Part shown: positions 12,545 to 62,697 of the stretch, one piece after another
Layout: every line of letters begins with the position of its first letter
Numbering within the stretch: the stretch's first letter is position 1
Assembly (NCBI GenBank): GCA_964507055.1
Contig: CAZDOJ010000001.1
Span: 13,210 to 77,209, forward strand
Source of the DNA: an uncultured Gammaproteobacteria bacterium
GTDB lineage: Bacteria > Patescibacteriota > Microgenomatia > Levybacterales > UBA12049
Length of the DNA: 64,000 nucleotides
Reading direction: 5' to 3'
The notes under the pieces: model-generated
Seen by the model: the letters and a program-made list of their open reading frames with translations, nothing else
The model's database searches: none
Told to the model about the DNA's origin: nothing
Made by a program: the position numbers and the translations under genes

Positions 12545-12555
12545 AAGAATAACAG

Positions 12556-24090: not shown

Positions 24091-24912
24091 CTAAAATAGG
24101 AACGGCAAATTAAATACCTTAATCCAAAAGACTGTATAGATCGCAAAGAAAACGACAGCTCCCACAATATAAAGAACCCGCAGCAATGCTGAGGTCTCAT
24201 GTGGAGCGTTAGCCTGCGAAACTTCTGCTGGCGAAGGTAATGGCTGCGTAAAAACCTGTGCTTGGGGATCTCCGGGGGAAGGATTATAAGGAGTGACTGG
24301 AGCCATTGGGTCTGTATCTGGTGGATTTGCTTGGCTTGAATCAAGTGACGAAAATGCTTGTGGAGATGCTAAATCCGGTTGCGATTCTGTTGGTGCGGGA
24401 GCTGGATTATTGAAGAAAGCTGAAGGAGATCCTGAAGCAGATCCAAAGCTTGAAGATGAAGTAGGTTCAGATACCGGAGCAGGAGCATCTGACGCGAAAA
24501 GTGTTGCCGAAGGATCAGCTGGTTCAGGTGTTGTCGCAGGTGAAGCTGAGACTTGATCAAATGTATCCATAATTGGCGGAGCTGCTGGTTCAGGTGCAGG
24601 CATAGTATTTGAAAGTGTTGGATCTGTAATTGGACTCGCATTTGGTGATGTAGACAAAACGCTATTTGGATCAGAAGCGTTTACAAGTGGATCTGATGCA
24701 GGAGAAGAAAGATCTGTTGTAGGTGGCACGTCTCCAACTGCTGGATTCGGTGGCATCACAGAATCTGCAGGAGTTGGTGTATTTACTGGTGTATCACCAG
24801 GTGTTGTACCTGCAACATCATGTGCCGTTCCCATAATACGGTCATACGTCTCTCGTGCTTTTGGGTCGAGGTGGTTAAGGGCTTTTGGATCCATAAGGTC
24901 TCTTTTAATCAT
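24091..24912 (-). CDS. Pro/Ser/Thr/Ala-rich tail-anchored membrane protein
   Basis: 273 aa of low-complexity P/S/T/A body with a single C-terminal TM segment (LLRVLYIVGAVVFFAIYTVFWI). Confidence 0.6.
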   Translation of the reverse strand: MIKRDLMDPKALNHLDPKARETYDRIMGTAHDVAGTTPGDTPVNTPTPADSVMPPNPAVGDVPPTTDLSSPASDPLVNASDPNSVLSTSPNASPITDPTLSNTMPAPEPAAPPIMDTFDQVSASPATTPEPADPSATLFASDAPAPVSEPTSSSSFGSASGSPSAFFNNPAPAPTESQPDLASPQAFSSLDSSQANPPDTDPMAPVTPYNPSPGDPQAQVFTQPLPSPAEVSQANAPHETSALLRVLYIVGAVVFFAIYTVFWIKVFNLPFLF

Positions 24913-27016: not shown

Positions 27017-27052
27017 TCTTTTATTCTTGATAAGTGCTATAATACTACTTTT

Positions 27053-36347: not shown

Positions 36348-37661
36348 ATGTCAAGACCCGAGCAAGAATCACAAGGTTTAGAACGGAAAAGACCAATAAG
36401 AGACCGTCTTAAAAATACGGTTTCAGGAATTGCGGAAAAAGGAAGAGGTTTGAAAGATTATGCTGTCGTATTTTCGCGTACAGCTCTTACTGTAGGTTTG
36501 CTTACACGCCACACATTACTTCATAGTTCTGATCGTCCTGATGGCGGATCAGAAAAGCGACCAGAAGCTTTATCCTACGCAGACCAAGCCAGACTATTAG
36601 CCGAACAAATTCACGCAAATGATCCTGTAATGACAGAATCGAATTTGGCATTCTATCCAGCAGCAGCTGTTACTGACGGTGATTATCAAATTGGTGTATC
36701 ATTCTATTCTGAGCCTTCTGCAGAAGAGGATTCAGGATCAATTTCTGTGACAATTGCTTTGGGAGCAGATCGTCCTTTGCCAGAGCGTGAATTACGATTT
36801 GATCCAGATGGAAGGTTAGAATTAGTTAATCATGGGGAATTACGAGATGCTTTAAATCGAAGAGATGAATCTGCAGAATTACAAACAGATTCTCTAACCG
36901 GAGAAGTGACACTTGAAGTTCCAGATGATGTCGATGATGCAGCTTTTCGTGAATACGCAGCAGCGTCTTCAGATAGGATACTCACCAATAATGAAGCACT
37001 CGTATATTTAGGATTTATAAAAGAACAAGTAGGCGATCGGTGGCCAGAAGATTTGGTATTACCTGATGTAACCGAGGATGGAGATTTTCCTGAAGCAATT
37101 GATGATACAAAAAGGCTGTTTACTCGAATTGCTGCTCGATTAGCGGCTCCACGTCCCGAATCAGCTGATGATCCACTATCGCCTAAGTTTGAACGAGTAA
37201 GAACAACCGAATGGATTATCTCTGAAGGCCATCGAGCAGTTCTTGATACACATACGAATGGGAATGGTGAGGTCGACGAAGTTCACCTAAAAACATATGA
37301 GAATGTTCCTACAGAATTTGGTTTTAGCTACGATGAAAGAAAGAAAGTGACTCTTCGGCCAGGAGACACAGAATATGAAGAATCAGTATATGTACATCCT
37401 GCTGACGTCTTTCATCTTACTGAAGCAAATCGAGAAGTGGCAATGGAATTAATGCAGTCATCAAGAAGAATTAGAAATCGAGAAGAACATGATCCTGCTA
37501 CAACGACTCAAATCGGGGAAGTATTTACAGTATTACAGTCCAAAGTTACGAGTTTGCGTGAACAACCTCGTCTTGATGACAATATTGATATAGAAGAACA
37601 AAATGGACATATTGATTGGGATGGACCAGATGATGATAGTGGTCCAAGAAGATCTTTGTAA
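36348..37661 (+). CDS. tail-family protein T8 (family B)
   Basis: C-terminus NGHIDWDGPDDDSGPRRSL. The N-terminus is homologous to T6. TGtTACAAT lies 9 nt before the ATG. Confidence 0.85.
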   Translation: MSRPEQESQGLERKRPIRDRLKNTVSGIAEKGRGLKDYAVVFSRTALTVGLLTRHTLLHSSDRPDGGSEKRPEALSYADQARLLAEQIHANDPVMTESNLAFYPAAAVTDGDYQIGVSFYSEPSAEEDSGSISVTIALGADRPLPERELRFDPDGRLELVNHGELRDALNRRDESAELQTDSLTGEVTLEVPDDVDDAAFREYAAASSDRILTNNEALVYLGFIKEQVGDRWPEDLVLPDVTEDGDFPEAIDDTKRLFTRIAARLAAPRPESADDPLSPKFERVRTTEWIISEGHRAVLDTHTNGNGEVDEVHLKTYENVPTEFGFSYDERKKVTLRPGDTEYEESVYVHPADVFHLTEANREVAMELMQSSRRIRNREEHDPATTTQIGEVFTVLQSKVTSLREQPRLDDNIDIEEQNGHIDWDGPDDDSGPRRSL

Positions 37662-37666
37662 TATAA

Positions 37667-38845
37667 ATGAATACTCCAGAAAATCCACGATATAAAGGAC
37701 CTGATAGATCAGGGAAAGTTGAGAGAGCTCCCCATGTTGAAACACCATTTCAAGAAGCAGTGCGTTTGGCTACAGCACTACATCGTGCAGATCCGAATCG
37801 TATCTATCAAGGATTTGGGAGGTATGACGTATTTTCAGACACGCCTGGTGTTTCAGGTGTACATGAGGTGCATGTGGATCCTTTGGATGTAGATCAGAAA
37901 GGGACGCATGGGTTCGTCTTTCCTTTCGATGAAGAAGTTGAAGGAGAACAAGTTGTCGGATCTGTACGATTTTTTATCAAAGATGGGTTGATGCATGCTG
38001 ATCCTACAAAGATTTGGGAAGCAAATGCTATGCGTGCATTAGACGAGGAGTTCGGACCCGATCATGTGGATGAGTTGGGTTTTCCTGAGCAATCTGGTGC
38101 TTCAGAGAGGTTTGTTGCGGAATCTCAAGTCCTTGCATCTGTTCAAGCGGAATGGGAGAACCATTTTCAAACAGCCGCGAGTGCACTTGCCCTTGGCTCA
38201 GTTCGAGAAGTATTAAATCAGATAAAAGCCACGTATAGTGAATTGCTTCCAAAAGAATTAGGTTTTGATGATATAGATGTATCCGCTCTCGATTATGATA
38301 GCGTCATAGCTCATGTAGGTCTAGCAGCTGAACACCTTGTGATATCAACGATACATTATAGCGAATGGCACGATGGACAAAATACCTATAATCTTACAAC
38401 GGAAAAAGATAAAACTGGAGCAGTGACAGATATTAGCTTCAAACACGCACACCGAATGGCGGATGATATGGCGGTCACGCATACTATTCGTGATTGGACA
38501 TTTACTGCTGATGGAGAATATTGTGCTGGATCGTATCAACAATTAGCTCCTTTTGCGGAGTATCTTGAAGATCCTGCTCAACTCCAAATGGTTTCGGCTC
38601 ACAACAAAACGCAGATGGACGAGCGAATCCGAGAAGCAGATCTTGGTGAAGATATTGCTGACACGCTACAAATACAAGCAGGAATTGATTTGCTGAAAGA
38701 TCCAAAACATTTTAAAATTCTCCAACCAGTACTTAATAAAGGAGATGTACTTTTTCCCGAAGAAGAATCCTTAGATCAGCGGCATGAACAGATTGATTGG
38801 AGTGGAGAGGATGATCAAGATATTGGTCCACATAGATCGTTATAA
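37667..38845 (+). CDS. tail-family protein T9 (distant family B)
   Basis: C-terminus HEQIDWSGEDDQDIGPHRSL. Lies only 5 nt after the T8 stop, so it is probably co-transcribed. Confidence 0.85.
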   Translation: MNTPENPRYKGPDRSGKVERAPHVETPFQEAVRLATALHRADPNRIYQGFGRYDVFSDTPGVSGVHEVHVDPLDVDQKGTHGFVFPFDEEVEGEQVVGSVRFFIKDGLMHADPTKIWEANAMRALDEEFGPDHVDELGFPEQSGASERFVAESQVLASVQAEWENHFQTAASALALGSVREVLNQIKATYSELLPKELGFDDIDVSALDYDSVIAHVGLAAEHLVISTIHYSEWHDGQNTYNLTTEKDKTGAVTDISFKHAHRMADDMAVTHTIRDWTFTADGEYCAGSYQQLAPFAEYLEDPAQLQMVSAHNKTQMDERIREADLGEDIADTLQIQAGIDLLKDPKHFKILQPVLNKGDVLFPEEESLDQRHEQIDWSGEDDQDIGPHRSL

Positions 38846-38846
38846 T

Positions 38847-39899
38847 ATGGTAGAAGCATACAGAAATAATAAGGAGCGTAATAAAAAACCTTTCACTATG
38901 GTACTTCTTGATCACGGTGCTGCTCGTCCTTCCGAAATAGCAGTTTGGAAAAATCATATTGTGACCCTTCTCAATAGAGATCCTTCTCATCATGGGAAAA
39001 TAGTAGTCTTCACAGAAAATGCTGCCGGCACAATCAGCAACGCTAATCGTGTGCAAAATAAAATTCGTAACGGGAAACTACCTACAAAAGCTTCCATTGA
39101 AGCAGGCCTTGAAGAGATTGCCGCAGCTGGAAGAATATTAAATGTTCCTGAAGCAGAAGCACACGCTATCGCACAAGAGGGACTTGAAGAAGGATTTGAT
39201 GGTGCAATTTTTCCCATACTTGATGATCTTCACCGGGAGCATGGAGAAAGAGTCGTTTGGATAGATGAAGCACATCCTTTATCAACGCATGAGAAAGGTA
39301 TAGCCTTCTTGGATACTGGATTTTTTATAGATCCTCCTTACGGGACGACTTCTCAATCCGAAATTGCTGATTGGTATCGTGAGAATTTTCGAAAAAACTC
39401 AGAATTTGATAGAGAGCGAGAAAATAATATAAGCCAAGCTTTGGCTGAACAGCTCGATGATCCCAATATTATTGGTGGCGTCGGGGTGATGGGATATTTC
39501 CATACCCGCGTTGTTCATAATTTGGCACGAAATGGCTATGCGGCTCGCAATGTTTTTCCAGAAAGAGAAGGAAGAAACTTTCACTTTAGTCCTAATACCT
39601 ATCTGCATAGAATGATTCATTTCTTTCCAGATCGTCAAATTACCGATGCAGATGTCCAAGATGCTTTAAGTGTAGGTCAATATACTGGGACTTTACTAAG
39701 AAGTGAAGGACGTGATCCTGCGACATTGAGTATTCAAGAAAGAAACAAAGTAGGCAATGAAATTTTGCATATCAGAGGGAAAGCACGTCAACGAGAGCTT
39801 CAGATATTTGATTCATCAGAAGCACTTGGAGATCATAATGATGAAATTGATTGGGCTGGGAATGATGAGCCTGATGAGGGACCTAAAAGGTCTCTTTAA
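38847..39899 (+). CDS. tail-family protein T10 (family A, H/E/E/H paralog)
   Basis: The MVEAYRNN start at 38847 is preferred over track 38784, which overlaps T9. Family A blocks: FTMVLLDHG, GKIVVFTENA, VGVMGYFHTRVVHNL, NVFP. C-terminus NDEIDWAGNDEPDEGPKRSL. Confidence 0.85.
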   Translation: MVEAYRNNKERNKKPFTMVLLDHGAARPSEIAVWKNHIVTLLNRDPSHHGKIVVFTENAAGTISNANRVQNKIRNGKLPTKASIEAGLEEIAAAGRILNVPEAEAHAIAQEGLEEGFDGAIFPILDDLHREHGERVVWIDEAHPLSTHEKGIAFLDTGFFIDPPYGTTSQSEIADWYRENFRKNSEFDRERENNISQALAEQLDDPNIIGGVGVMGYFHTRVVHNLARNGYAARNVFPEREGRNFHFSPNTYLHRMIHFFPDRQITDADVQDALSVGQYTGTLLRSEGRDPATLSIQERNKVGNEILHIRGKARQRELQIFDSSEALGDHNDEIDWAGNDEPDEGPKRSL

Positions 39900-39960
39900 T
39901 GGCCTATAATAGTTTTATTTTTAATCATTTCATGGTATAATCCCAAAAGACAAGCCATCC

Positions 39961-41019
39961 TTGTCCCATTTTTTTATGAATAATATTGAAGGTGCTCCCA
40001 AGAAAAGAGTAGAACATCGTGAGGTGGATCCACGAAAAAAACCTATTGATCTTTTCTTTTTACCTCATCATGAGGATATGTATCACGTGCTTGATCCATG
40101 GGAAGAAAAAATACGTAATACACTCGCAGAAAAACCTACCGGCAAACTTGTTGTTTTTACAGAACTAGCAACTGGACGAAGAGATATGAGCGATCGTGTA
40201 CGTGGGCTTGTATCCAATGGTGTTTCTCCCAGTGACGCATATGCACAAGCAATAATATCACGGTTGCGTGAAGCTGGAGATGACGGTACAGATAGTGAAC
40301 TTGAAAATATTGCGTTACGAAGTCTCTCTGGATTTGTAGGAGAATCATCCATGAGACTTGACGGAATTGTCCGTGATTTTCCTGGAAGGATAGACTGGAT
40401 AATTGAAGGTCGTCGCGATGATCAAGAATTACCTGAAGATGACGAAGATGTAAAGGCTGCGTACACATTTCTGACGACAAGAGTTGATGGAGTTCCTAGT
40501 GACGACCATATTGATATTTATCGAGAATCACTTGCAACAATTTCCCATAGCGATCGTGTGCGGGATCGGTATATCGCGGAGCAAATTGCAGAGACACTTG
40601 AAAATCCTGATACTATTGGTGTTGCTGGGTGGGTGGGCACCAAACACACAGCAATCAGTCATAAATTAAAAGCAGACGGCTATACAATTAATCGAACATT
40701 TCCACAGTTAGAGGATGGAGTATTGGTATTTGCACCGATAACAACTCTTATACGAGAAGCCGAGTATCATCCAAGGAGAGAAATTCCCAAAGAAGATATT
40801 ATCGTGACAACCGCTCTTGCCAACCCAGTTTTTGATTTCGATCCGAATGCATCCGATCAGCAATTTTTTAAGAATGCACATACATGGATGACAGAGAAAA
40901 AAGCAGAACTCACGTTACAAGAAGAGCTTGGCAGTGATCAACCATTATCAGAAATTGATCCGTCCGTTAACTGGGATGGGACAGAGGATCCTGATTCCGG
41001 TCCACGTCAGAGCCTTTAA
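39961..41019 (+). CDS. tail-family protein T11 (family A)
   Basis: The TTG start gives MSHFF, homologous to MSHFE of T12; the ATG at 39976 is an alternative. Blocks LFFLPHH, GKLVVFTELA, FPGRI, AGWVGTKHTAISHKL. C-terminus VNWDGTEDPDSGPRQSL. Confidence 0.8.
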   Translation: MSHFFMNNIEGAPKKRVEHREVDPRKKPIDLFFLPHHEDMYHVLDPWEEKIRNTLAEKPTGKLVVFTELATGRRDMSDRVRGLVSNGVSPSDAYAQAIISRLREAGDDGTDSELENIALRSLSGFVGESSMRLDGIVRDFPGRIDWIIEGRRDDQELPEDDEDVKAAYTFLTTRVDGVPSDDHIDIYRESLATISHSDRVRDRYIAEQIAETLENPDTIGVAGWVGTKHTAISHKLKADGYTINRTFPQLEDGVLVFAPITTLIREAEYHPRREIPKEDIIVTTALANPVFDFDPNASDQQFFKNAHTWMTEKKAELTLQEELGSDQPLSEIDPSVNWDGTEDPDSGPRQSL

Positions 41020-41054
41020 TTGCTTTTTGTGCCCAATTTGTTACAATACCGCCT

Positions 41055-42089
41055 ATGTCACACTTTGAAAGAGAACCTATAAAAAGAACAGAACGACTTG
41101 ATCCAAGGCAGAAGCCGACGACACTTTTTTTTATCAACCATAATGAGGCTGATCATACGCCACTTGTACCTTGGAAAAATCACCTTGAAAACCGTTTGCA
41201 GGACTTACCGAAAGGGAAAAAGATTGCGGTATTCACTGAAAGTGTTATCACAAGTACTGAAGTCGCTCAAGCCACGCAGGAACGAGTTGCCGATGGTATG
41301 AGTCCAACTGAAGCATATGTACATTCTGTATATGATCAATTGCTTCCAGGTATGCCACGCACTGACAAAACTCTGGAGCTTGTACATGATCATGTCCGAG
41401 CTCAGAATTCTTTTATAGCAGCATCTCGGGATATACTTGATGAATTAGCCCAACGCTATCCCGGAATCCATTGGATTGAAGAATCACATGATGCAACAGA
41501 GCGTGACCGTATCGTAGAGAGTGCAAAAGATTTTTTTACCATGCTTGATGTTCGAACTGATCCTCAAAGCCAAACATTGGATGAAAAAAAAGAGGTGATA
41601 GAGAATTTTGGAGCAAGGCAGCAGATGCGTGATCAAAGCATTGCAGGACTTATTACTGGAGCACTTGAAGAAGATGATGTTGTAGAAAGTATTGGTTGGG
41701 TTGGAGCGGATCATACAGGTATTTCTCATGCTTTAGTGCGAGATGGATATACAGCAAATAGAGTCTTCCCACATAGGCAAGGAGGGACCTTCTATTTTGA
41801 ACCATTAACTACATTGTGGAAAACGGCAAACATTCGAGAACTTACCGATGAAGAAGTAGAAGTATCACTTCAAGCAGACCGAAACCTCGCAGTTCCATTG
41901 AGTGTTGGAAGACAAGCTGATATTCAAGCCGCACATCGGATGATTAAAGTAGCAACCCAGCTGAGACAGCGAAGTAATCAAAGGCAAGAACCACCATCAA
42001 TAGATTCAAGTGAAACTTCTTTGCCTCAAACTGCTATTGACTGGGCTAGTGAAGAAGAAGGTCCCACAGAACCACGAAGAACTTTATAG
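41055..42089 (+). CDS. tail-family protein T12 (family A)
   Basis: LFFINHN, KIAVFTES, YPGIHWIEESH, IGWVGADHTGISHAL. C-terminus TAIDWASEEEGPTEPRRTL. TGtTACAAT lies 7 nt before the ATG. Confidence 0.85.
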   Translation: MSHFEREPIKRTERLDPRQKPTTLFFINHNEADHTPLVPWKNHLENRLQDLPKGKKIAVFTESVITSTEVAQATQERVADGMSPTEAYVHSVYDQLLPGMPRTDKTLELVHDHVRAQNSFIAASRDILDELAQRYPGIHWIEESHDATERDRIVESAKDFFTMLDVRTDPQSQTLDEKKEVIENFGARQQMRDQSIAGLITGALEEDDVVESIGWVGADHTGISHALVRDGYTANRVFPHRQGGTFYFEPLTTLWKTANIRELTDEEVEVSLQADRNLAVPLSVGRQADIQAAHRMIKVATQLRQRSNQRQEPPSIDSSETSLPQTAIDWASEEEGPTEPRRTL

Positions 42090-42116
42090 TCAAAATGAAT
42101 TTGGTATAATCCCCAC

Positions 42117-43289
42117 ATGGTAGAACATGTTGATTCCTCTCGAACCGGAAAAAAACCACGCAAACCTTTTACACAATTTCTTGTCTCTCATAGTGACGAT
42201 AAACTTGATCAGCTCTCTGGATGGGCTAATGCACTTCAGCGATCGCTTGAAGAAAATCCAGATAAGAAAGTTGTAGTTTTTACAGAAAATGCTAAGGGAG
42301 TTAAAGCAGATTCAGAAAAACTAACAGAAAAGGTTCTGGAAGGTATGCTGCCATCTGATGCATATGCTGCTGTAGCAACAGAAAATATGAGTTCATACTT
42401 TGCAAAGAATAGTACTCGTGTAGGTGTTACAAGACAACGTCGGATTATTAAAAAAGAGGCAGAAAAAGCTAGAGATCAGATTGGAGGAGGATTTTTTGGT
42501 AGATCATTTCAACTTCTTGATGCTATTGCAGCTGAATATCCGGGCAGAATAGTATTCATAAGTGAATGGGAACCAGAGCTCGCAAATCAATTAGATACAC
42601 AACAGAAAACTCGAGAATTAGGTATCGGTTTTCGAAGAGAATTGGGATTGCAGACTCGGGCTGAAAAAGCTGCTTCTGCACGAGAGTTCTTTCTATTCCA
42701 GGCAGATAATGCAAATGCCAGAGAAGAGTCTGCTGCACAAGTTCTGACGGATGCCTTAGACCGCGATGACGTTGCTGCAGGAGTTGGCTGGATGGGAGCC
42801 GCACATACTGGACTTGTACATCGATTGCAGGCAAATCATGATGTACGCATGATTATGCCAGGAAAGGTTGGAAGAGATTTTGTATATACGCCTGAGAATG
42901 CACTTATTCGTGAACGACTATTTCATCCGGATCGTGATATTGATTTGGATGAAGCATACGAGGCTGTACAGATAGAAAGAAGAGTAAGAAGACAGTATCC
43001 AATTTTCCATTTGGGGATTGTTTTAGAAAGTAAATGGGGTATAAATCCATTTCATAATAAGCAGAGAAAAGCTGAAATTGATCAAGAAATTAGTAGAAGA
43101 GCTCAGGTTGAATTCCAAGCTTTTCGAGCAGGCCGAAATGAGTATGCCCAAGATCAAAACACAATAGTAGCTCTTCCCAATGCATCAGCGATTGTACAAG
43201 ACAATGAAGTGTCACTAAGAGATATGAACTCTGGTCTTGATTGGGATGGTTCAGACGGTCCAGATCAAGATTATCGAAAAACATTGTAA
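42117..43289 (+). CDS. tail-family protein T13 (family A)
   Basis: QFLVSHS, KVVVFTENA, LPSDAY, YPGRIVFISEWE, VGWMGAAHTGLVHRL. C-terminus GLDWDGSDGPDQDYRKTL. TGgTATAAT lies 6 nt before the ATG. Confidence 0.85.
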   Translation: MVEHVDSSRTGKKPRKPFTQFLVSHSDDKLDQLSGWANALQRSLEENPDKKVVVFTENAKGVKADSEKLTEKVLEGMLPSDAYAAVATENMSSYFAKNSTRVGVTRQRRIIKKEAEKARDQIGGGFFGRSFQLLDAIAAEYPGRIVFISEWEPELANQLDTQQKTRELGIGFRRELGLQTRAEKAASAREFFLFQADNANAREESAAQVLTDALDRDDVAAGVGWMGAAHTGLVHRLQANHDVRMIMPGKVGRDFVYTPENALIRERLFHPDRDIDLDEAYEAVQIERRVRRQYPIFHLGIVLESKWGINPFHNKQRKAEIDQEISRRAQVEFQAFRAGRNEYAQDQNTIVALPNASAIVQDNEVSLRDMNSGLDWDGSDGPDQDYRKTL

Positions 43290-43319
43290 TTATTATTTAA
43301 AAAGAATATAATCCCGTCA

Positions 43320-44513
43320 ATGACTGAACGATCTGCAAAATCACCTGCTCAGGTGGAAGGGGCCGTGGCTCCAGATGGCAAGAAAAAACCTGTTTCCCTT
43401 TTCTTTGTTTCGCATCATCCTGCACAAGGATACCAGCTCGACGGATGGAGAAGAAAGATAGAAGATATCCTTGATTCTACTCCAAAAGGAAAAGTTGTAG
43501 TTTTTACAGAGAATGCTGGGCAAAGCCATAGGCATTCCAATCTTACTCGACAAAATGTTGCTAATGGTGATCTACCATCAGATGCCGTTGAAAAAAGTTT
43601 CCGAGAACTAAATGATCATTATCGAAGTCATGGGGTTGAATGGGCCTTGAGTGATGAGAGAGTAGCAGAACTTCTTGAGAAAGGAACAAAAACATTTACT
43701 GGCATATCGACAGCTATACTTGATGATATTGCTGCTCGTTATCCTGGAAGAATAGATCTCGTTGAGGAATGGGAAAGTCGCAAAGGACATCAACTTGAAC
43801 ATGATCTCTACAAAAAGGATACTCCTCAGCGAAATACAACCCTAAGTGCTGTTATGTCTTTATTTCCTCAAGGACGTAGAATTTTGGCTGCTGAGGGTCG
43901 AGAAAAATTGGCATCCGAAGCTGCAATATACCGTGAACGTGAGGAAACATCTGCACGAATTATTAGTGATGCATTAGAACAACCCGATACTATTGCGGCG
44001 GTTGGCTGGATGGGTGCAATACATACTGGACTGAGCCATGAGCTCACTCGAGAGGGTCATCCAGTAATGCGTGTATTTCCAGAGCGAGTAGATGGAGAGC
44101 CATATCTTTTTCCGCCAGGACATACGCTCCTTCGTGCCAAGCGTTTTGATCCGGATAAAGAATTAACTGATGATGAGATCGTAACGGCTGAGCAGGCTGA
44201 TCTGAAGGGAATGCATAAACAATTTGGTGATCCACGGATCAATCCAATTGGTTTTTTTATGCGGTATAAGTCTCAAAAAGAAGAAGTACGCTCAGGAAAA
44301 GCACAGGCTTCTATTCGATATGCTCAAGAATGGTATAGACGAAAAATGGGCAAACAGGCATCAAATGAAGAGCAAGTAAGTACAAATAGACAACTTCAAG
44401 AATCAGTTACGGTTGCCCCAGATATAGCAGAGCCCCCACTTGGCGATCTGAATTCCGATATAGATTGGGGAGAGTCTGGACCCGATGCAAATGGACCAAA
44501 ACGGTCACTCTAA
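43320..44513 (+). CDS. tail-family protein T14 (family A)
   Basis: LFFVSHH, GKVVVFTENA, LPSDAV, YPGRIDLVEEWE, VGWMGAIHTGLSHEL. C-terminus SDIDWGESGPDANGPKRSL. Confidence 0.85.
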   Translation: MTERSAKSPAQVEGAVAPDGKKKPVSLFFVSHHPAQGYQLDGWRRKIEDILDSTPKGKVVVFTENAGQSHRHSNLTRQNVANGDLPSDAVEKSFRELNDHYRSHGVEWALSDERVAELLEKGTKTFTGISTAILDDIAARYPGRIDLVEEWESRKGHQLEHDLYKKDTPQRNTTLSAVMSLFPQGRRILAAEGREKLASEAAIYREREETSARIISDALEQPDTIAAVGWMGAIHTGLSHELTREGHPVMRVFPERVDGEPYLFPPGHTLLRAKRFDPDKELTDDEIVTAEQADLKGMHKQFGDPRINPIGFFMRYKSQKEEVRSGKAQASIRYAQEWYRRKMGKQASNEEQVSTNRQLQESVTVAPDIAEPPLGDLNSDIDWGESGPDANGPKRSL

Positions 44514-44514
44514 G

Positions 44515-44550
44515 CCTGTAATAGTTAAATAGTATATTTTTTGTTATAAT
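44515..44550 (+). promoter_or_regulatory. island junction promoter: CCTGTAATAG-N20-TATAAT (T15)
   Basis: Box at 44515-44524 and TGtTATAAT at 44542-44550. ATG follows 6 nt later. Confidence 0.55.
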
Positions 44551-44556
44551 CCTTCG

Positions 44557-46401
44557 ATGGTAGAACAATCAAGAAGAATTGCACCACAGGGAAGTCGTAC
44601 TTTTCGTGGTACAGATGTGTCCGCAATGCATGCAGAAATGCAAGGTATCCTTACGGCTTCGAGAGATAATGATCCGCATGCCTCCACAATAGACTCATAT
44701 AGAAAGATTGCTGATGCACTTCCTCTACGGGTTCCAGCTGCTACATACCAAGCCGTTAGTGAATCTATCAATAATCCTGATCCCGTGATTTCAAAAGCTG
44801 GGAAGGAAGTTTTTACTTGGCTAAATATAAAGACTGTAATTTCAGTTGCAGAAAGATATTCGGGAGAAGGTTTGGGAGATGTTGAAGATTTCGCTCAGGA
44901 AGGGGTTACTATCCTTTATGAAAATGTAGACACAATTCATCAGAGGGCAGATAGTTCTATGTATACTTATCGTTTGGCTGAAGAGGCTCTGACTAATAGT
45001 ATTGCTCGTGAGCATGGATTTAGTGTTACTATGAGCGAAAATAGAGTTGCATTACCTATTGGTCAGACCGTGACTGAATTATTTGATAATGCTCCCTTAG
45101 GGGTTGATGAAGTAGGGCTTGAAAGGCAAGCAGTAGTATTAGCACAGAAATTTGGAATTACTGAAGATGCTGCATTTAAATATCTCTCAAGGAGGAGTGC
45201 ATTGCAGCCAATTCACGAAAGTAAGATGCAGCCAGAACGTGAGGATACAGAGGTAATAGAAGATATTATGGTTTTAGATGAGCTTCTGAGGATGCTTCCT
45301 GAAAGGAATGAACAAATGCTGCGGATGAGATTTGGGAATGGTTTTACACTAGATGAAATTGCCCAACGCTACAACCTGGTTCCTGAACGTGCTCGTCAAA
45401 TAATTGCTAAAACAATTAAATCATTACAGCATGAGCAAGTTATCGATTTTGTTACAGGGGGAGTTAAACCCGCATCTCGAAGTCAGCGAATAATGACATC
45501 AGATGGAGAAGAGGGGCAGGATATTGAAGATGTCATCCGCGAAAAGCGTTTGGCTGGATATGGTGAATCTGGATCAGGTTCGTGGGCTGAATCTAGAAAG
45601 GAATTGGCTAATATTGCACATGCATTCTTAGCTGAGCCGCAAATTGGGTATCCGGAAATTGCAAATAGGCTTGGAATTACAGTAGATAAAGTAATTTATA
45701 GTGTACAAACTCTTCGTTCAAAATATTTGTTACCAGATGCTAATGCAGGTAAGCATGCAAAAATAACTCCCGATGATGGCAACAGAACATTGCAGGAAAG
45801 ACTACATTCACGATATGAAAGACAAGAATCCGAGATTGTAGTTCCGCCAATTCAGGGGGAAAGAGAAACAAGTACTATCCCAGCAATTGAGGACACTTCT
45901 TCTAAATCGAAACCACCATCAGAAAGAACACTTCGTGCTTTAATTTTGCAAAAACAAGCGTGGAAGTTACAGCAAGAAGACGGAAAAACGTACGATGAGA
46001 TTTCTGAAATACTCAATGTTAGTCTAGGATCCATACGAAGATATCTTCAAAACGAACGGCGAGACCTTGGTCTTGCAAATCAGACGAATGTCGGACGTCC
46101 TAAAGATCCTGAGGTGCAAGCTAGAAGAGCCGTTTTGGCTGAGAGAATTAAAGCTGGTGAGCCTCTTAGAGTTCATGGATTTGCTAAAGAGTTTGGTACT
46201 ACTGTAGGTACTATAAATTTTGATATACGTGAAATTTTGAGTGGATATCATACTTCTTCATCAGAGACAACAATATTTTCTCAAGAAGAACATGCTTCGC
46301 AACAGCCTAAACTTGAGGAGCCAGAGGTTACGATCGCTGATGTAGCTGTCGATTGGGATGGTACCGATGATCCTGAAGCAGGTCCTCAACGAACTTTATA
46401 A
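44557..46401 (+). CDS. tail-family protein T15: sigma-70-family N-terminal half + extra HTH modules
   Basis: Region 2-like NIKTVISVAERYSGEGLGDVEDFAQEGVTILYENVDT. Region 4.2-like LPERNEQMLRMRFGNGFTLDEIAQRYNLVPERARQIIAKTIKSL. Further HTH-like segments are present. C-terminus VAVDWDGTDDPEAGPQRTL. Confidence 0.8.
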   Translation: MVEQSRRIAPQGSRTFRGTDVSAMHAEMQGILTASRDNDPHASTIDSYRKIADALPLRVPAATYQAVSESINNPDPVISKAGKEVFTWLNIKTVISVAERYSGEGLGDVEDFAQEGVTILYENVDTIHQRADSSMYTYRLAEEALTNSIAREHGFSVTMSENRVALPIGQTVTELFDNAPLGVDEVGLERQAVVLAQKFGITEDAAFKYLSRRSALQPIHESKMQPEREDTEVIEDIMVLDELLRMLPERNEQMLRMRFGNGFTLDEIAQRYNLVPERARQIIAKTIKSLQHEQVIDFVTGGVKPASRSQRIMTSDGEEGQDIEDVIREKRLAGYGESGSGSWAESRKELANIAHAFLAEPQIGYPEIANRLGITVDKVIYSVQTLRSKYLLPDANAGKHAKITPDDGNRTLQERLHSRYERQESEIVVPPIQGERETSTIPAIEDTSSKSKPPSERTLRALILQKQAWKLQQEDGKTYDEISEILNVSLGSIRRYLQNERRDLGLANQTNVGRPKDPEVQARRAVLAERIKAGEPLRVHGFAKEFGTTVGTINFDIREILSGYHTSSSETTIFSQEEHASQQPKLEEPEVTIADVAVDWDGTDDPEAGPQRTL

Positions 46402-46442
46402 TTTATCTTTCCGCCTCATCCTATGGTATAATCTTGCCCAAT

Positions 46443-48695
46443 ATGATTGAACGGAGACCTCAAATGAAATCGGCAGTCTTTACCGGAGATGTTGATGGCA
46501 TTGATCCTTATGGTACATTGGCAGAATATGTAAAAGTTATTGATACTGTGGCTGCGATTCGCACTCCAGAAGATCGTATTCAGGCAAGACATGTATTACG
46601 TCGGATGATTATTGGATTTCCTCCTCACATTTCTCCCGCAGCTTTCATTAAAAATGAACATGCAGAGCTTGCTCTTACAGATGAAGAGCGAAGGATACAA
46701 GAACAAGATACAATTGATAGAAAAGCCAAACAAGAAGCAATTGATGCAGATATTGCTTCAGGTACATATCCTTGGCAAGCACATGCACGGCATAATGAAG
46801 AAAGCAGAGTCAATACACATCTCATTGGGTTTTACGGAGATGAAGCTTTACAACCACTCTATGGACCTCCTTATTTTGAATCAACTCACGGACAAAAAGA
46901 AGTCCATTTAATACATTTGGATATCAAGCCAGTTGAGGGAGAAGTGCGAAAGAGTGCACATTGGGATGCGTTACCAGAAGATCTTCGAGAACAGTTTGAG
47001 GGAGGATCAATCCCAATCACCGGAACGACTGACCTTTATGCATTAACAGATGAGGAATTAGACAACCTTGCAGTGTCCGAAGATCCATTCAAAATGCAAA
47101 AGCATATAAAAAAGAAACTTGCTCAAGCGGATGATGGATATTATGTTTTGTATTATAGTGATTTCCGCAATCCAGGAGGGAGAACTGGTGTCCTCATGCA
47201 ATCAAGGGATGGAGATATGCAACCTGTGACCACGAAAATTGGTGATGATGAATTTCTCATTGAAGCCAAATCGATAGGGACAAAATATGGTGGATTTGGA
47301 GGAAAGCATCGTCGTCAAAGTGGAAATGATGTCATTACGGGTGGGGGGACTGCTAGAGAATCCGTACGTGAAATTGAGCGCTTGGAAGAGACTGAATTTC
47401 ATGATGGTCCTCAACCAGTTGGTGCTATAACATTTCGCAACGAGGAAGGTGAAGATCAAGGTGTACTGCTTCGACTTACACCGTCAACTGTTCGTGCTGC
47501 TTTTACTATGCCAGATGCATATCCGAAAATTGATTCCCCTGATATTGCAAAGCGGGTTTTCGATATGTATACACAATTATTGGCTGATCAAACGCTTGGA
47601 GAAAATCCTTATATTATAGGTGCTCAATCTTCACATACGGAAAATATCCTCATTTGGAAAGATACGTATGGCTATACAGACTCAGCAGATAAAGCAGCTT
47701 TTCATGATGGTTCAGTGGTGAGTTATGAGAAGGACTTCAAGTTGCGTACGCCTAAAGAGTTTCTCATAGAATACATTGGGCTCGTAGGATATATTCCTGG
47801 AAGGAGCAAGGTAGAAAAACAATACTTTATTGATGGGCTTACTCGAGCTTTTGCCTCTCATGGCAAAAATATTGACCTCCATCCTGAAGATTATGATTTT
47901 GAGATTGCCGAAAAGCTTTGGGCAGAAGGGGGAATTGCATATTCTGTATTTAAGGCTAGAAGAGAACGAGGATTTGTGGCAGATGGAGTACTTAAAGATT
48001 TTACTGATTATGCTGCAAAGGTGAGAGATATATTTGGCGAAAAAGCAATGGGTTCTGAAGAATCATTTAAGCAGAGGATGGAAGATATGGTTGCAACTGT
48101 GAAGAAACAGCTTCTTGAGAAAAGAAATAAAACCAGTGACATTGACGCCCAAAGAGAAATCAATAGTATATTAGCAGAACTCGGAGGAAATAATTTTTTG
48201 AATGGAAGTAATGGATATGATCTCATTTCGAATACGTTTTCACAAAATCATGGAGAAACACAGGAAGATAATGAGCTTATTCAAAACGCTGAAGATATTA
48301 AGACGATACAACAGCTATTTTTCATACATGAATTATATTTCGATCATGAAAGTGATGTAGTATCTGGTGCGTTGAAAAGTTGCCCTGAAGAAGAACGTGA
48401 AAATGTTGAAGATGCAAAAGCGGAGGTTGGTCGAAAACTAGATGAAGCATTTATACTTCGCACGCCAGAAGGACTTTATCGAGCTCTAACAGATGCGGAA
48501 TATGTGCGAGAGTTGATAACAATGGAGGTATATTCACAAGGCTCAGAATTATCTACAGATATTGAAGCTCATCCCGAACAAGTGATCTTCGATCCACGAC
48601 AATATGGATCATCGACTGAGTTTTTTTTAGCTGATGCCCAGATAGACTGGGCTGGAATAGAAGATCCTGATCCTGGATCACAACGAACGCTTTAG
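46443..48695 (+). CDS. tail-family protein T16 (750 aa, unknown)
   Basis: The ATG at 46443 lies 10 nt after TGgTATAAT (46424-46432); the track TTG at 46434 abuts the -10. C-terminus AQIDWAGIEDPDPGSQRTL. Confidence 0.85.
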   Translation: MIERRPQMKSAVFTGDVDGIDPYGTLAEYVKVIDTVAAIRTPEDRIQARHVLRRMIIGFPPHISPAAFIKNEHAELALTDEERRIQEQDTIDRKAKQEAIDADIASGTYPWQAHARHNEESRVNTHLIGFYGDEALQPLYGPPYFESTHGQKEVHLIHLDIKPVEGEVRKSAHWDALPEDLREQFEGGSIPITGTTDLYALTDEELDNLAVSEDPFKMQKHIKKKLAQADDGYYVLYYSDFRNPGGRTGVLMQSRDGDMQPVTTKIGDDEFLIEAKSIGTKYGGFGGKHRRQSGNDVITGGGTARESVREIERLEETEFHDGPQPVGAITFRNEEGEDQGVLLRLTPSTVRAAFTMPDAYPKIDSPDIAKRVFDMYTQLLADQTLGENPYIIGAQSSHTENILIWKDTYGYTDSADKAAFHDGSVVSYEKDFKLRTPKEFLIEYIGLVGYIPGRSKVEKQYFIDGLTRAFASHGKNIDLHPEDYDFEIAEKLWAEGGIAYSVFKARRERGFVADGVLKDFTDYAAKVRDIFGEKAMGSEESFKQRMEDMVATVKKQLLEKRNKTSDIDAQREINSILAELGGNNFLNGSNGYDLISNTFSQNHGETQEDNELIQNAEDIKTIQQLFFIHELYFDHESDVVSGALKSCPEEERENVEDAKAEVGRKLDEAFILRTPEGLYRALTDAEYVRELITMEVYSQGSELSTDIEAHPEQVIFDPRQYGSSTEFFLADAQIDWAGIEDPDPGSQRTL

Positions 48696-48731
48696 AAATG
48701 TCAGGTTTGTTGAGCTAAATTTTGCTATAAT
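48693..48731 (+). promoter_or_regulatory. junction repeat TAGAAATGTCAGGTT + TGcTATAAT (T17)
   Basis: A 15-mer at 48693-48707 that includes the T16 stop codon and is identical to 50766-50780. The -10 element is at 48723-48731. Confidence 0.55.
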
Positions 48732-48737
48732 CCCCGA

Positions 48738-50768: not shown

Positions 50769-50804
50769 AAATGTCAGGTTCACTACAATGAAGTTTGTTA
50801 TAAT
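50766..50804 (+). promoter_or_regulatory. junction repeat TAGAAATGTCAGGTT + TGtTATAAT (T18)
   Basis: A 15-mer at 50766-50780 that includes the T17 stop codon. The -10 element is at 50796-50804, with the ATG 6 nt later. Confidence 0.55.
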
Positions 50805-50810
50805 CCCCAA

Positions 50811-53528: not shown

Positions 53529-53534
53529 TAGCAG

Positions 53535-53570
53535 CCTGTAGTAGAATTTTGAGCCTAAATTTGGTATAAT
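53535..53570 (+). promoter_or_regulatory. island junction promoter: CCTGTAGTAG-N20-TATAAT (T19)
   Basis: Box at 53535-53544 and TGgTATAAT at 53562-53570. ATG follows 6 nt later. Confidence 0.55.
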
Positions 53571-53576
53571 CCGCAA

Positions 53577-56027: not shown

Positions 56028-56078
56028 CTTGAATATAAGGCTAAATTCAACTATAATACCCCGATACATTAGATAACT

Positions 56079-57275: not shown

Positions 57276-57279
57276 CTTC

Positions 57280-62551: not shown

Positions 62552-62579
62552 ATTTTTGGTATATGTGTAAGAAATGATG

Positions 62580-62690: not shown

Positions 62691-62697
62691 ATCCACC

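Follow-up and report, generated by a model that had tools for sequence, protein, structure and literature searches.

A shared C-terminal tail on at least 28 neighbouring proteins of a Patescibacterium, a candidate recruitment or secretion signal linked to a VirD4-type coupling protein

In type VII secretion, the FtsK-like ATPase EccC binds a signal at the extreme C terminus of EsxB, and substrates are encoded beside the ATPase. XVIPCD, known from the Proteobacteria, is a folded domain of ~100 or more residues. It forms the conserved C-terminal module of diverse effectors of the Xanthomonas-type type IV secretion system (T4SS), is needed for translocation and binds the coupling protein VirD4, and 13–16 XVIPCD proteins are found in a single genome (PMC10989847). 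Effectors of the Dot/Icm system are bound on the type IV coupling protein (T4CP) complex, and their signals are read by the T4CP or by the C-terminal-tail binders DotM and IcmSW (PMC12857230). In the Patescibacteria, T4SSs are widespread and usually encoded near the replication origin, and most T4CP genes are unlinked to virB4; in S. epibionticum the T4SS is essential and the T4CP is not, for which reason exaptation of the T4CP has been deemed possible (PMC12102498). The survey from which these observations come, by Quinonero-Coronel et al. (2025), reported no substrates, signals or tail-bearing arrays (PMC12102498).

The DNA analysed here (the window, 64,000 nucleotides), assigned by rpsB to the ultra-small Patescibacteria, carries 21 consecutive ORFs (24992..58797) whose products bear a common C-terminal tail, followed by a T4CP gene and by a further tail gene that runs off the window. 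The features of this array are as follows.

24992..27016, + strand: tail gene 1, 674 aa with the start codon ATG at 24992 (the ORF listing starts at the GTG at 24938); no Pfam match; body related to L006_1036 beyond the window; tail at 26933..27016, ..HTLVDWSGQNDDVEGPRRSL-stop
27053..28978, + strand: tail gene 2, 641 aa; pyridine nucleotide-disulphide oxidoreductase body (Pyr_redox_3, 3.8e-10); tail ..RVSWDIEAGPEDQDPPKKTL-stop
29136..32129, + strand: tail gene 3, 997 aa; tail ..GHIDWTGEGDDHSGPNQTL-stop
32171..33298, + strand: tail gene 4, 375 aa; paralogue of the genes at 33755 and 36348; tail ..GDIDWNGEDDPEGPQKSL-stop
33347..33679, + strand: tail mini-gene 5, 110 aa; basic R/P-rich N terminus; variant tail ..NIFDGSNDGQSGPRRSL-stop (18 bits against the tail profile)
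33755..35056, + strand: tail gene 6, 433 aa; tail ..EGIDWNGDTDPDQDGPPRTL-stop
35116..36297, + strand: tail gene 7, 393 aa with the start codon ATG at 35116; tail ..SLGEIDPFIDWDSDDGMDGPRRSL-stop
36348..37661, + strand: tail gene 8, the gene under study, 437 aa; tail at 37578..37661, ..NGHIDWDGPDDDSGPRRSL-stop
37667..38845, + strand: tail gene 9, 392 aa; tail ..EQIDWSGEDDQDIGPHRSL-stop
38847..39899, + strand: tail gene 10, 350 aa with the start codon ATG at 38847 (MVEA..); TIKI-like family; tail ..DEIDWAGNDEPDEGPKRSL-stop
39976..41019, + strand: tail gene 11, 347 aa; TIKI-like family; tail ..PLSEIDPSVNWDGTEDPDSGPRQSL-stop
41055..42089, + strand: tail gene 12, 344 aa; TIKI-like family; tail ..TAIDWASEEEGPTEPRRTL-stop
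42117..43289, + strand: tail gene 13, 390 aa; TIKI-like family; tail ..SGLDWDGSDGPDQDYRKTL-stop
43320..44513, + strand: tail gene 14, 397 aa; TIKI-like family; tail ..PLGDLNSDIDWGESGPDANGPKRSL-stop
44557..46401, + strand: tail gene 15, 614 aa; sigma-70-like, with region 2 and two copies of region 4 (Sigma70_r4 2.7e-16, r4_2 5e-16, r2 2.5e-4; phrog_351 sigma factor, 1.5e-14); tail ..VAVDWDGTDDPEAGPQRTL-stop
46443..48695, + strand: tail gene 16, 750 aa with the start codon ATG at 46443; tail ..AQIDWAGIEDPDPGSQRTL-stop
48738..50768, + strand: tail gene 17, 676 aa; HTH-containing; orthologues in the related loci L008 and L009; tail ..PLSALDAGIDWSGDDDPDPGLQRTL-stop
50811..53528, + strand: tail gene 18, 905 aa; multi-HTH; paralogue of the gene at 48738 (40% identity); tail ..ETIDWSGEDDPDIGQHRTL-stop
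53577..56027, + strand: tail gene 19, 816 aa; N-terminal TIKI-like domain and repeat region; tail ..PLAEIDLQIDWGGEGDPDLGAHKSL-stop
56079..57275, + strand: tail gene 20, 398 aa; the sole degenerate end, ..PLSTLDESVQWDGSDSPRGVDGPKMR-stop; in L009 the orthologous gene ends in an intact tail of the lineage type
57280..58797, − strand: tail gene 21, 505 aa; immediately 3' of the T4CP gene on the same strand, a partner kept in all three lineages; family with an invariant C..SC.C cluster; tail at 57280..57363, ..DAVDFAGEDEPDQDLPKTL-stop
58799..62551, − strand: VirD4-type T4CP, 1250 aa; tail-like C terminus ..PELDAPLTMEQEVELYNEMEKK..DDGPPKLGK-stop
62552..62697, no strand: divergent promoter region separating the T4CP gene from the next tail gene, with CCTGTAGTAG at 62655; TGTGnTATAATCATCATTTCTTACA 5' of the T4CP gene is conserved across all three lineages
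62698..64000, + strand: tail gene 22 (P0152), first 434 codons of 527 aa; TIKI-like family; runs off the window; end read from L006/L031, ..AGIDWAGENDPDTGPRRTL-stop, with six more tail genes downstream

Positions 37590..37661 encode IEEQNGHIDWDGPDDDSGPRRSL-stop, the end of ORF 36348..37661, and the tail consensus in the window lineage is ..[IV]DW.G..DPD.GP.[RK][ST]L-stop. With the seven tail genes past the window end, a tail of ~25–40 residues is carried by at least 28 neighbouring, mostly unrelated genes, a lower bound made up of the 21 window ORFs and these seven. A first-pass annotation of this DNA, made from the sequence alone, had placed S/T-L before the stop in 20 of 21 genes; this was confirmed, the sole window exception being 56079..57275 with GPKMR-stop, and the same terminus is found in 27 of all 28 known tails. 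The five peptides quoted in that annotation were all located, in the genes starting at 39976 (PLSEIDPSVNWDG), 35116 (SLGEIDPFIDWDS), 53577 (PLAEIDLQIDWGG), 48738 (PLSALDAGIDWSG) and 43320 (PLGDLNSDIDWGE). Its extended upstream pattern was said to be usually present, which is generous for a pattern found in about half of the tails: [PS]L ten residues upstream of the W occurs in 16/28 and the complete pattern [PS]L..[ILFM][DN]..[IVL].W in 11/28; the W itself is present in 27/28 and [IV]DW in 21/28. W.G is present in 19/28, and a weakly conserved P-x-[LIF]-[DS] lies ~10 residues further upstream. The spacing from the W to the end, taken on 26 tails where the motif counts are on 28, is 15 residues in 15 of them, with a range of 12–20 and a single tail at 26. 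When the window was translated in six frames (1130 segments), a profile built from the tails matched the 21 ORFs alone, without a significant internal or off-locus match; its scores were 30–42 bits (the best, 42 bits, for 37667..38845), and the match terminated exactly at the stop in 20 of the 21. This test is partly circular, as the profile derives from the same tails, and the lack of matches elsewhere is still informative.

Over the last 17 residues of the tailed proteins identity is 50% overall and 51% between unrelated bodies, against 6% for random 17-mers, and by BLASTP the 28 proteins form 16 body families, 338 of the 378 pairs having no body similarity. Common ends of this kind could stem from a process at the DNA level, such as recent duplication, gene conversion or a mobile cassette, and a recurrent DNA word for IDW, ATTGATTGG, that the first-pass annotation had pointed out would agree with it: the word occurs 11 times in the window, against 1.4 expected and a count reached in none of 100 shuffles, and 8 of the 11 occurrences lie inside tails. 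This origin is contradicted by fully scrambled synonymous codons, the terminal Leu being encoded by all six Leu codons, Ser by both TCN and AGC, and the tail Gly, Pro and Arg residues by several codons each; in addition, the bodies are unrelated, and the same architecture with another sequence is kept in two further lineages. Its probability is practically negligible. Because the terminal Leu uses six codons and Ser both TCN and AGC, conservation of the tail acts at the protein level. Tail and body were compared here by codon scrambling and by identity; the seven Logan copies of the locus are all 100% identical and thus contain no within-species variation.

In an AF2 model of P0152, the tail region has a pLDDT <50. 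Most of the tail-bearing proteins are acidic, and no signal peptides or convincing TM segments were detected in them, one borderline hydrophobic stretch in 33755..35056 lying at the Kyte-Doolittle cut-off. At a cut-off of E <= 0.01 the tails have no Pfam match, and PDB sequence searches with the families of the T4CP partner and of 36348..37661 returned no match. A 42-aa tail search found 18 candidates sharing words with the tail among 5.8e9 clusters, none of them at E <= 10, a 30–42-bit profile being too weak for significance against a set of this size; since only these 18 share words at all, the tail words appear to be essentially confined to the source genome. A degenerate DNA tail probe (41 bits; recovers 8 of 26 local tails) had 0 matches in IMG/VR and 0 in 185,579 GTDB species genomes. 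The probed genomes included OZ246394.1 (88% rpsB identity), which therefore lacks either the window tail type or the array.

The array resembles the XVIPCD system in its diverse bodies, its one conserved C-terminal module and its many proteins per genome. It differs in that the module is a 25–40-residue, apparently disordered peptide with a fixed free end; for a tail of this length and low pLDDT, without a Pfam match, no sequence relationship to XVIPCD is apparent. XVIPCD effectors are also scattered and have adjacent immunity genes, whereas here there are no such genes and a single array surrounds the T4CP. Short, unstructured and charged C-terminal signals on unrelated proteins are likewise a property of the Dot/Icm (E-block) and VirB/D4 (Arg-rich) systems, but those signals are compositional and poorly conserved, while the present tail has a sharp motif and an invariant end. 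On the best reading, the tail would work like XVIPCD or the Dot/Icm signals yet belong to neither family.

The T4CP gene (58799..62551) sits mid-array and is the sole gene of the ~60-kb locus without a canonical tail. Its product is a coupling protein of the VirD4/TraG/TrwB family by its nucleotide-binding and all-alpha domains, located at ~aa 650–1150: Pfam matches are T4SS-DNA_transf (5.4e-29), TraG-D_C and TrwB_AAD_bind (8.7e-9), and the AF2 model (pLDDT 83) retrieves Cagbeta (1.7e-18) and TrwB (2.4e-14) with Foldseek. The Walker motifs, as read from a sequence alignment, are GPTGQGKS and an invariant DE (D990, E991); the all-alpha domain (residues 145–300 of the AF2 model) is confidently predicted as wholly helical. 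The NCBIfam match conju_CD1115 (4.6e-20) relates the protein to the VirD4 of monoderms (CD1115/MPF-FATA type). An N-terminal extension of ~650 aa consists in part of acidic low-complexity sequence, and the C-terminal segment is confidently helical in the AF2 model. No TM anchor was detected, the maximal 19-residue Kyte-Doolittle mean being 1.34 (1.41 and 1.11 in the two relatives) against a threshold of 1.6; judged in this way, a TM segment is present in 110 of 117 ordinary T4CP matches and in 0 of 3 in this clade. The system departs from that of XVIPCD in having a T4CP without a TM domain in a monoderm Patescibacterium, and from Dot/Icm and VirB/D4, where the T4CP has a membrane anchor and its gene accompanies those of a complete T4SS. 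As with EccC and EsxB, an ATPase of the FtsK/HerA/VirD4 superfamily has its candidate substrates encoded next door, but EccC is of a different ATPase family, is membrane-anchored with three ATPase domains and acts on small helical WXG100/LXG proteins, and there is no similarity of motif. The phylum is shared with the surveyed T4SSs and orphan T4CPs of Patescibacteria (Quinonero-Coronel et al. 2025, PMC12102498), and the present T4CP gene is likewise not linked to virB4; it differs from those surveyed in that its product is one of a clade of three T4CPs that lack a TM segment and are extended N-terminally by 650 aa.

An exhaustive phmmer search of 1.84e9 representative proteins recovered only two other T4CPs with the same long architecture, P0002 (1.7e-71) and P0003 (1.5e-55). 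Both lie in syntenic loci, L008 and L009, whose neighbouring genes share another C-terminal tail, EP.V.....[ST]I...E...GK[ST]K-COOH. Gene order and several bodies are conserved across the three lineages, and orthologous bodies carry the tail of their own lineage: the orthologues P0152 and P0151 are 46% identical over aa 1–487, and the alignment is lost exactly at the start of the tail. What all three lineages have in common is limited to basic-[ST]-X-COOH as the final three residues and to the fixed position of the stop. The hhalign probability for the window tails against those of L008 is 0.2%, so that homology of the two tail types is not demonstrable. A profile of P0152/P0151 found no further relatives in the 5.8e9 clusters. 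No shared tails were seen among the neighbours of ordinary T4CPs (L034, L035) or of a Firmicutes-type T4CP (L030), and when JGI metagenomes were scanned with an alignment of the T4CPs, the only one to come up was unrelated, of the Firmicutes type and without tails. The tail thus co-varies with a rare clade of T4CPs that lack a TM segment. The first-pass annotation had suggested recognition of the T4CP type, and this proposal gains strong circumstantial backing because the T4CP lies mid-array, both related T4CPs are surrounded by tails, and the tails on orthologous bodies are lineage-specific.

All three T4CPs also bear a tail-like C-terminal segment and an R/P-rich N terminus of the kind found in their neighbours, the L009 segment PAVGRRRTIYERQEE resembling the tails around it. 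For this reason a different role is retained for the tail, that of a peptide by which the proteins dock on a cytoplasmic hub or assembly unrelated to secretion, with the soluble T4CP-like ATPase exapted as an unfoldase, remodeller or scaffold and all proteins of the locus assembling on a platform that may be encoded elsewhere. The tail-like segment and R/P-rich N terminus of the T4CPs, the loss of an anchor that ordinary T4CPs nearly always have, and the retention of synteny and several orthologous bodies in three lineages, as for the parts of a machine, would all suit such an assembly, as would the lack of VirB4, VirB6 and VirB8-type channel genes in the ~76 kb examined; T4CP exaptation in Patescibacteria has been allowed for (PMC12102498). 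However, 16 unrelated body families, among them nine effector-type hydrolase-like paralogues, a sigma factor and an oxidoreductase, are ill-suited to a single structural assembly, the expansion of paralogues at 20–30% identity resembles diversifying cargo, and the ~60-kb locus offers no tail-less candidate for the platform. We consider docking of this kind possible but rather unlikely.

The comparison among lineages also bears on two readings of the free end itself. The first-pass annotation had regarded a motif placed internally, or followed by variable extensions, in homologues as evidence that the free terminus is irrelevant; neither is seen in the two related loci, where the distance from the EP.V anchor to the stop is 30–33 residues in 14 of 15 tails, with one at 38. 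The fixed stop suggests, from sequence, that the free carboxylate may be part of the recognised element, although the last residue varies by lineage, being L in the window and mostly K, also M or I, in the relatives. A fixed stop on a disordered tail would likewise suit a degron in the style of ssrA or the ClpX C-motifs, recognised by an AAA+ unfoldase or by a protease specific for C termini and keeping these proteins at low levels or timing their turnover; the window-type end basic-basic-[ST]-L-COOH is loosely like the basic-then-hydrophobic C-terminal motifs of ClpX. Such an explanation is very unlikely: the mostly Lys terminus in L008 and L009 is not hydrophobic, a few residues suffice for a degron while 25–40 are conserved here, degrons of housekeeping proteases rarely swap wholesale among close lineages whereas this tail tracks the T4CP lineage, and the locus has no protease gene.

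Recognition by a PDZ-type domain, also raised by the first-pass annotation, is not supported. In [RK]-[ST]-L the S/T is penultimate, whereas class I PDZ domains need it at −2 ([ST]-x-hydrophobic-COOH), and no PDZ protein is encoded in the locus; the only PDZ candidate in the window, 16938..18122, we take to be an RseP-like membrane protease, whose PDZ domains would presumably face outward. Cargo proteins of encapsulins have short C-terminal peptides common to unrelated bodies, and a loading peptide of this type would, like a PDZ ligand, explain the fixed C-terminal position and the hydrophobic last residue of the window lineage. Both are highly improbable, as the terminal residue is Lys in the related lineages, Pfam searches of 40 proteins from the window and its extension gave no PDZ, encapsulin, Linocin or HK97-fold shell match, and the locus genes are themselves tailed, without an adjacent HK97-fold shell gene.

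The bodies bearing the tail include a nine-member family with a TIKI/ChaN/HopBA1/RRSP-like alpha/beta fold. Its members combine the TIKI fold with a conserved 2His/2Glu motif, which places them in the TIKI/erythromycin-esterase/ChaN superfamily. This fold is that of the effectors HopBA1, RRSP and PMT. Together, the nine TIKI-superfamily paralogues, the sigma-70-like factor, the multi-HTH proteins and the oxidoreductase fit a role as cargo or effectors. The conserved gene order and bodies and the absence of candidate immunity genes from the locus are usually atypical of interbacterial toxin repertoires. PADLOC, PHROGs, tRNA and Rfam searches gave no signal for a defence island, a prophage or a tRNA-integrated element, and the GC content of the locus (0.41–0.43) is slightly above that of the housekeeping part (0.38–0.40).

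As in T4CP-dependent T4SS substrates, then, a common C-terminal element is found on unrelated proteins, and a VirD4-type coupling protein is encoded in the same genome, at 58799..62551 inside the array. It is somewhat probable that the tail serves in recruitment or secretion, as a C-terminal signal co-evolving with a T4CP-centred system in Patescibacteria. As such a signal it would be a modular, intrinsically disordered mark designating at least 28 unrelated cytoplasmic proteins as clients of the mid-locus T4CP. It would have two parts, a lineage-specific hydrophobic/acidic module, P.L...[PS]L..[IL][DN]..[IV]DW.G..DPD, and the short end basic-[ST]-X-COOH common to the three known lineages. The tail may dock on the T4CP hexamer or on a receptor associated with it, whereupon the ATPase would feed the protein, C terminus first, into a Patescibacteria (monoderm-type) type IV secretion channel, and the destination would most plausibly be the bacterial host cell of the presumed epibiont. 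The missing membrane anchor of the T4CP leaves the connection to the channel unexplained, the ~76 kb examined contain no homologue of VirB4 or VirB3/6/8, which also speaks against this reading, and because the T4CPs carry a tail-like segment, the T4CP could be among the clients of some other receptor instead of being the receptor itself.

A more specific proposal is that, in a small clade of Patescibacteria, a soluble VirD4-like ATPase lacking a TM segment has become the hub of a dedicated delivery system, in which ~30 cargo proteins, among them the sigma factor, multi-HTH DNA-binding proteins and TIKI-type hydrolases, would be marked by a two-part code, an R/P/E-rich N terminus and the lineage-specific tail ending in basic-[ST]-X-COOH, and injected to reprogram the transcription and proteome of the host. 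This extension is speculative and, in our judgement, unlikely. If it were true, no effector repertoire or secretion signal of any Patescibacteria or monoderm-type T4SS would precede these, and a secretion signal would have been replaced in concert on dozens of genes.

The T4SS is essential for the epibiotic growth of the one genetically tractable Patescibacteria species, and whether monoderm-type T4SSs are dedicated effector translocators is described as a long-standing question (PMC12102498; PMC12857230). The locus offers a first candidate cargo set of at least 28 proteins for type IV secretion in Patescibacteria, together with a sharply defined candidate signal and its candidate receptor. 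With unrelated tails on orthologous proteins and only the last three residues and the stop held fixed, it is also a natural experiment in the co-evolution of signal and receptor. If the cargo includes the sigma factor and the DNA-binding proteins, the epibiont would rewire the transcription of its host.

The open reading frame at 36348..37661 closes with window positions 37590..37661, which encode ..IEEQNGHIDWDGPDDDSGPRRSL-stop. When all long ORFs were translated, 21 consecutive window genes were found to have like ends, next to a gene for a VirD4-type type IV coupling protein (T4CP):

24992..57275 (+), run of genes carrying the common C-terminal motif (the tail)
57280..58797 (-), 505-aa tail-bearing gene, the partner of the T4CP
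58799..62551 (-), T4CP, 1250 aa, the sole gene of the locus without a canonical tail
62698 onward (+), tail gene running off the window (P0152)

The consensus of these tails is P.[LIF][DS]......[PS]L..[IL][DN]..[IV]DW.G..DPD.GP.[RK][ST]L-COOH, with [ST]L-stop in 20/21; the exception, 56079..57275, ends in GPKMR-stop. The array runs past the window end: on a 100-kb Logan contig, for which NCBI and Logan also have a 1.32-Mb version, another seven complete tail genes lie downstream of 62698, bringing the total to at least 28 ([ST]L end in 27/28); the gene after them, of which only a part is covered, points to a further continuation of the array. A shared motif ending in [ST]L-stop, as described in the first-pass annotation, is therefore confirmed and extended, and all five of its example peptides were found. 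The pattern that it called usual upstream of the tryptophan is real but restricted to roughly half of the tails, with [PS]L at W-10 in 16/28 and the full pattern in 11/28. The DNA word ATTGATTGG, noted there as recurrent, occurs in 11 copies against 1.4 expected, eight of them within tails. One mini-protein (33347..33679, 110 aa) consists of little beyond a basic N-terminus and a variant tail, with NIFDG for IDW.G.

By BLASTP, the 28 tail proteins fall into 16 body families, and body similarity is undetectable in 338 of 378 pairs. Identity over the last 17 residues is still 50%, and 51% where the bodies are unrelated, as compared to 6% for random 17-mers of the same proteins. Among 1130 six-frame segments of the window, matches to the tail profile were confined to the tail ORFs and ended exactly at the stop in 20/21, with no significant internal copy. 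All six Leu codons are in use for the terminal Leu, Ser is encoded by both TCN and AGC, and Gly and Pro use three and four codons, respectively; this scrambling of synonymous codons places the conservation at the protein level, not in recent duplication or gene conversion. The tail is under protein-level selection, and an explanation at the DNA level, against which these codon data speak, is very improbable.

No signal peptides were detected in the tail-bearing proteins, which are mostly acidic; a Kyte-Doolittle scan found one borderline hydrophobic stretch, right at the cut-off, in 33755..35056. In one member modelled with AlphaFold2, pLDDT is about 35-52 over the final ~50 residues, as expected of a disordered linear motif. 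The recognizable bodies are diverse:

27053 (+), start of a gene with a pyridine nucleotide-disulphide oxidoreductase body
44557..46401 (+), sigma-70-like protein with region 2, region 4 and a second region-4-like HTH
48738 and 50811 (+), starts of two large multi-HTH proteins
38847, 39976, 41055, 42117 and 43320 (+, gene starts), the N-terminus of 53577, and three beyond the window, a nine-paralogue family

The sigma-70-like protein could be a cargo sigma factor or a regulator of the array. The nine paralogues have a TIKI/ChaN/Ere/HopBA1/RRSP-like fold (in the window, 38847..44513, 53577..54560 and 62698..64000), and K29, H38, K65, E71, D147, E162, R210, G232, G235 and H238 are invariant in the eight members aligned. 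The N-termini of the tail proteins and T4CPs are also alike, with M-[VTSK]-E-[QR].. and then a stretch rich in R, P and E: Arg and Pro make up 24% of residues 2-25 in array proteins versus 9% in window housekeeping proteins (Fisher p = 1e-12), and Glu occupies position 3 in 14/29 versus 2/24. A like pattern is seen in the related loci L008 and L009 described below. It may represent a second, N-terminal part of a signal or a constraint of leaderless mRNA.

Residues ~650-1150 of the T4CP are of VirD4 type by Pfam (T4SS-DNA_transf, 5.4e-29; TraG-D_C; TrwB_AAD_bind) and match the VirD4-like CD1115 family in NCBIfam (4.6e-20); the best Foldseek matches of its AlphaFold2 model (pLDDT 83) are Cagbeta (1.7e-18) and TrwB (2.4e-14). 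The protein is atypical: it has an N-terminal extension of ~650 aa, in part acidic and of low complexity, and a hydrophobicity test found no transmembrane segment, while the same test found an N-terminal one in 110/117 ordinary T4CP matches. The T4CP and the partner directly downstream are the only minus-strand genes amid the plus-strand array. When 1.84 billion representative proteins were searched exhaustively with phmmer, only two other long T4CPs lacking a transmembrane segment emerged, P0002 (1349 aa, 1.7e-71) and P0003 (1306 aa, 1.5e-55); all other matches were ordinary T4CPs of 400-900 aa, aligned over the ATPase part only (E >= 4e-30). The Logan contigs encoding these two relatives (L008 and L009) are syntenic with the window, with the T4CP and a ~490-aa partner on one strand and arrays flanking them on the other.

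The neighbours in L008 and L009 again share a C-terminal tail, but one different from that of the window. In L008 it reads ..EP.[VI]G.[SA]...[ST]I...E..(10-15 polar/acidic)..[KR]GK[ST]K in 12/12 complete genes, and in the four intact genes of L009 ..EP.V.R..RTI.ER......GK[ST]K, with the EP.V anchor 30-33 residues from the end in 14/15 tails and 38 residues from it in the remaining one. Tails of L008 and L009 can be aligned with each other; neither shows profile similarity to the window tail (hhalign probability 0.2%). Several bodies are orthologous across the lineages, most clearly P0152 and its L008 counterpart P0151, which are 46% identical over residues 1-487 and whose alignment collapses precisely at the start of the tail. 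The tail therefore tracks the T4CP lineage and not the body. All three lineages have in common a fixed stop position and a terminal tripeptide made up of a basic residue, mostly S/T, and a last residue; this sequence pattern suggests that the tail has two parts, a lineage-specific module and a common extreme end. The Lys end in the related lineages argues against the tail being a degron, a reading raised in the first-pass annotation that now has little probability. In negative controls, common tails were absent among the neighbours of two ordinary T4CPs (L034 and L035) and around the single JGI metagenome match (L030). The L009 orthologue of 56079..57275 retains the L009-lineage tail. That of the 48738/50811 multi-HTH proteins lies in three overlapping ORFs (L009 8857..10398), the last with a degenerate tail, and is probably a pseudogene.

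All three T4CPs carry a tail-like segment ~45 residues before their own end, followed by a conserved ..LP..LGGP.K.K end. The L009 segment, PAVGRRRTIYERQEE, is nearly identical to PPVIRRRTITERS of a neighbour, and its counterpart in the window T4CP is predicted with confidence to be helical (pLDDT 74-83). It could act as a pseudo-substrate in cis-autoinhibition, mediate subunit contacts, or mark the T4CP as a client of another receptor. This segment and the missing membrane anchor count against a simple model of the T4CP as receptor, which is weakened further as no T4SS channel genes were found within the ~76 kb examined. A model in which the tail serves a non-secretory hub or assembly is rather unlikely. 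Residues 79-241 of the L008 T4CP resemble residues 140-306 of an array protein, L009 5467..6948 (26% identity over 172 aa, E = 1.6e-9); a client protein fused to the T4CP may have been the origin of the N-terminal extension. The partner, which shares the operon of the T4CP, occurs in each of the three lineages (L008 and L009 versions 44% identical, similarity to the window version weak) and has no match in Pfam or PDB sequences; its invariant C-T-x-S-C-x-C cluster is possibly a metal site.

Almost all array genes are preceded by an extended -10 box of their own, TGnTATAAT, that stops 6-10 nt short of the ATG. This leaves no room for a Shine-Dalgarno sequence and implies leaderless transcripts. 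Several housekeeping genes share this arrangement, with a spacer that is AT-rich where that of array genes tends to be C-rich (TATAATCCCC). Regulatory features of the locus are:

29122..29127, 42105..42110, 43307..43312, 44545..44550 and 53565..53570, examples of -10 boxes
62552..62697 in the window, 9849..10000 in L008 and 1..95 in L009, T4CP promoter and 5' leader
36303, 44515, 53535 and 62655 (+), CCTGTAGTAG with at most one mismatch, preceding the ATG of four array genes by ~45 nt

The T4CP promoter and leader, TGTGnTATAATCATCATTTCTTACA.ATAT, have no Rfam match and are kept at the DNA level in all three lineages, whose proteins are 29-35% identical. CCTGTAGTAG has nine matches versus 1.8 expected, also lies upstream of L008 genes, and may represent an operator or an element akin to a -35 box, perhaps for the array-encoded sigma-like protein. 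The mechanical ORF starts at 24938, 35098, 38784, 39961 and 46434 probably lie too far 5'; starts at 24992, 35116, 38847, 39976 and 46443 agree better with the promoter positions, the gene calls of Logan and the N-terminal pattern. The start at 38847 (MVEA.., one base past the previous stop) removes an apparent 62-nt overlap with the preceding tail.

The system appears to be rare: a degenerate DNA probe for the tail gave no matches in IMG/VR and 185,579 GTDB species genomes, an orthologue profile recovered only itself among 5.8 billion clusters, and the window proteins are unnamed singletons. Ribosomal protein S2 places the organism in Patescibacteria: its identity is 88% to that of a 1.61-Mb MAG mislabelled Gammaproteobacteria, 73-76% to those of Saccharimonadales-labelled MAGs, and 55-67% when compared with Levyibacteriota and other Patescibacteria. 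To the left, the window holds ordinary chromosomal genes (dcd, tmk, thyA, folA, glyA, rpsB, tsf, frr, zwf, gnd, proS) together with surface proteins of a CPR-typical kind. The array is only slightly richer in GC, and tRNA, Rfam, phage and defence searches gave no sign that the locus is a mobile island. The CPR-style surface and secreted proteins (582..4812 and 11594..13407 (-)) include VWA and SdrD-B-like domains with dockerin-like C-termini (..DVNQIDYNLFIREIS..), and a protein with a Hint domain and a Gly/Ser run at its end. Adjoining the left array border, 24091..24912 (-) encodes 273 aa, hydrophobic in a C-terminal segment and without a Pfam match, and is the only membrane-protein candidate nearby.

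The tail is linked to the T4CP and co-varies with it between lineages. The best-supported reading, which we regard as somewhat probable, is that the tail is a secretion signal that recruits proteins to a T4CP-centred system: a disordered C-terminal peptide, its end necessarily free, would be recognised on diverse cytoplasmic proteins, which the coupling ATPase would pass to a type IV secretion channel. Of the recognition modes proposed in the first-pass annotation, the T4CP type has gained from this circumstantial but strong evidence of linkage and co-variation. A PDZ- or encapsulin-type role, for which a shell or PDZ gene is missing, is hardly likely. In the proposed role the tail would function in the manner of XVIPCD, the VirD4-binding module of Xanthomonas-type T4SS effectors (PMC10989847), and of the C-terminal signals by which Dot/Icm and VirB/D4 effectors are recognised on the T4CP complex (PMC12857230). 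It has no sequence relationship to these and is not a member of their families, and the system differs in that the tail is a short peptide and not a domain, the T4CP lacks a membrane anchor, and the organism is a monoderm Patescibacterium. Most T4CP genes of Patescibacteria are orphans without a known role (PMC12102498), and no T4SS substrate or signal has been described for the phylum; effector translocation by monoderm-type T4SSs, on which a secretory role of the tail would bear, has been called a long-standing question (PMC12857230).
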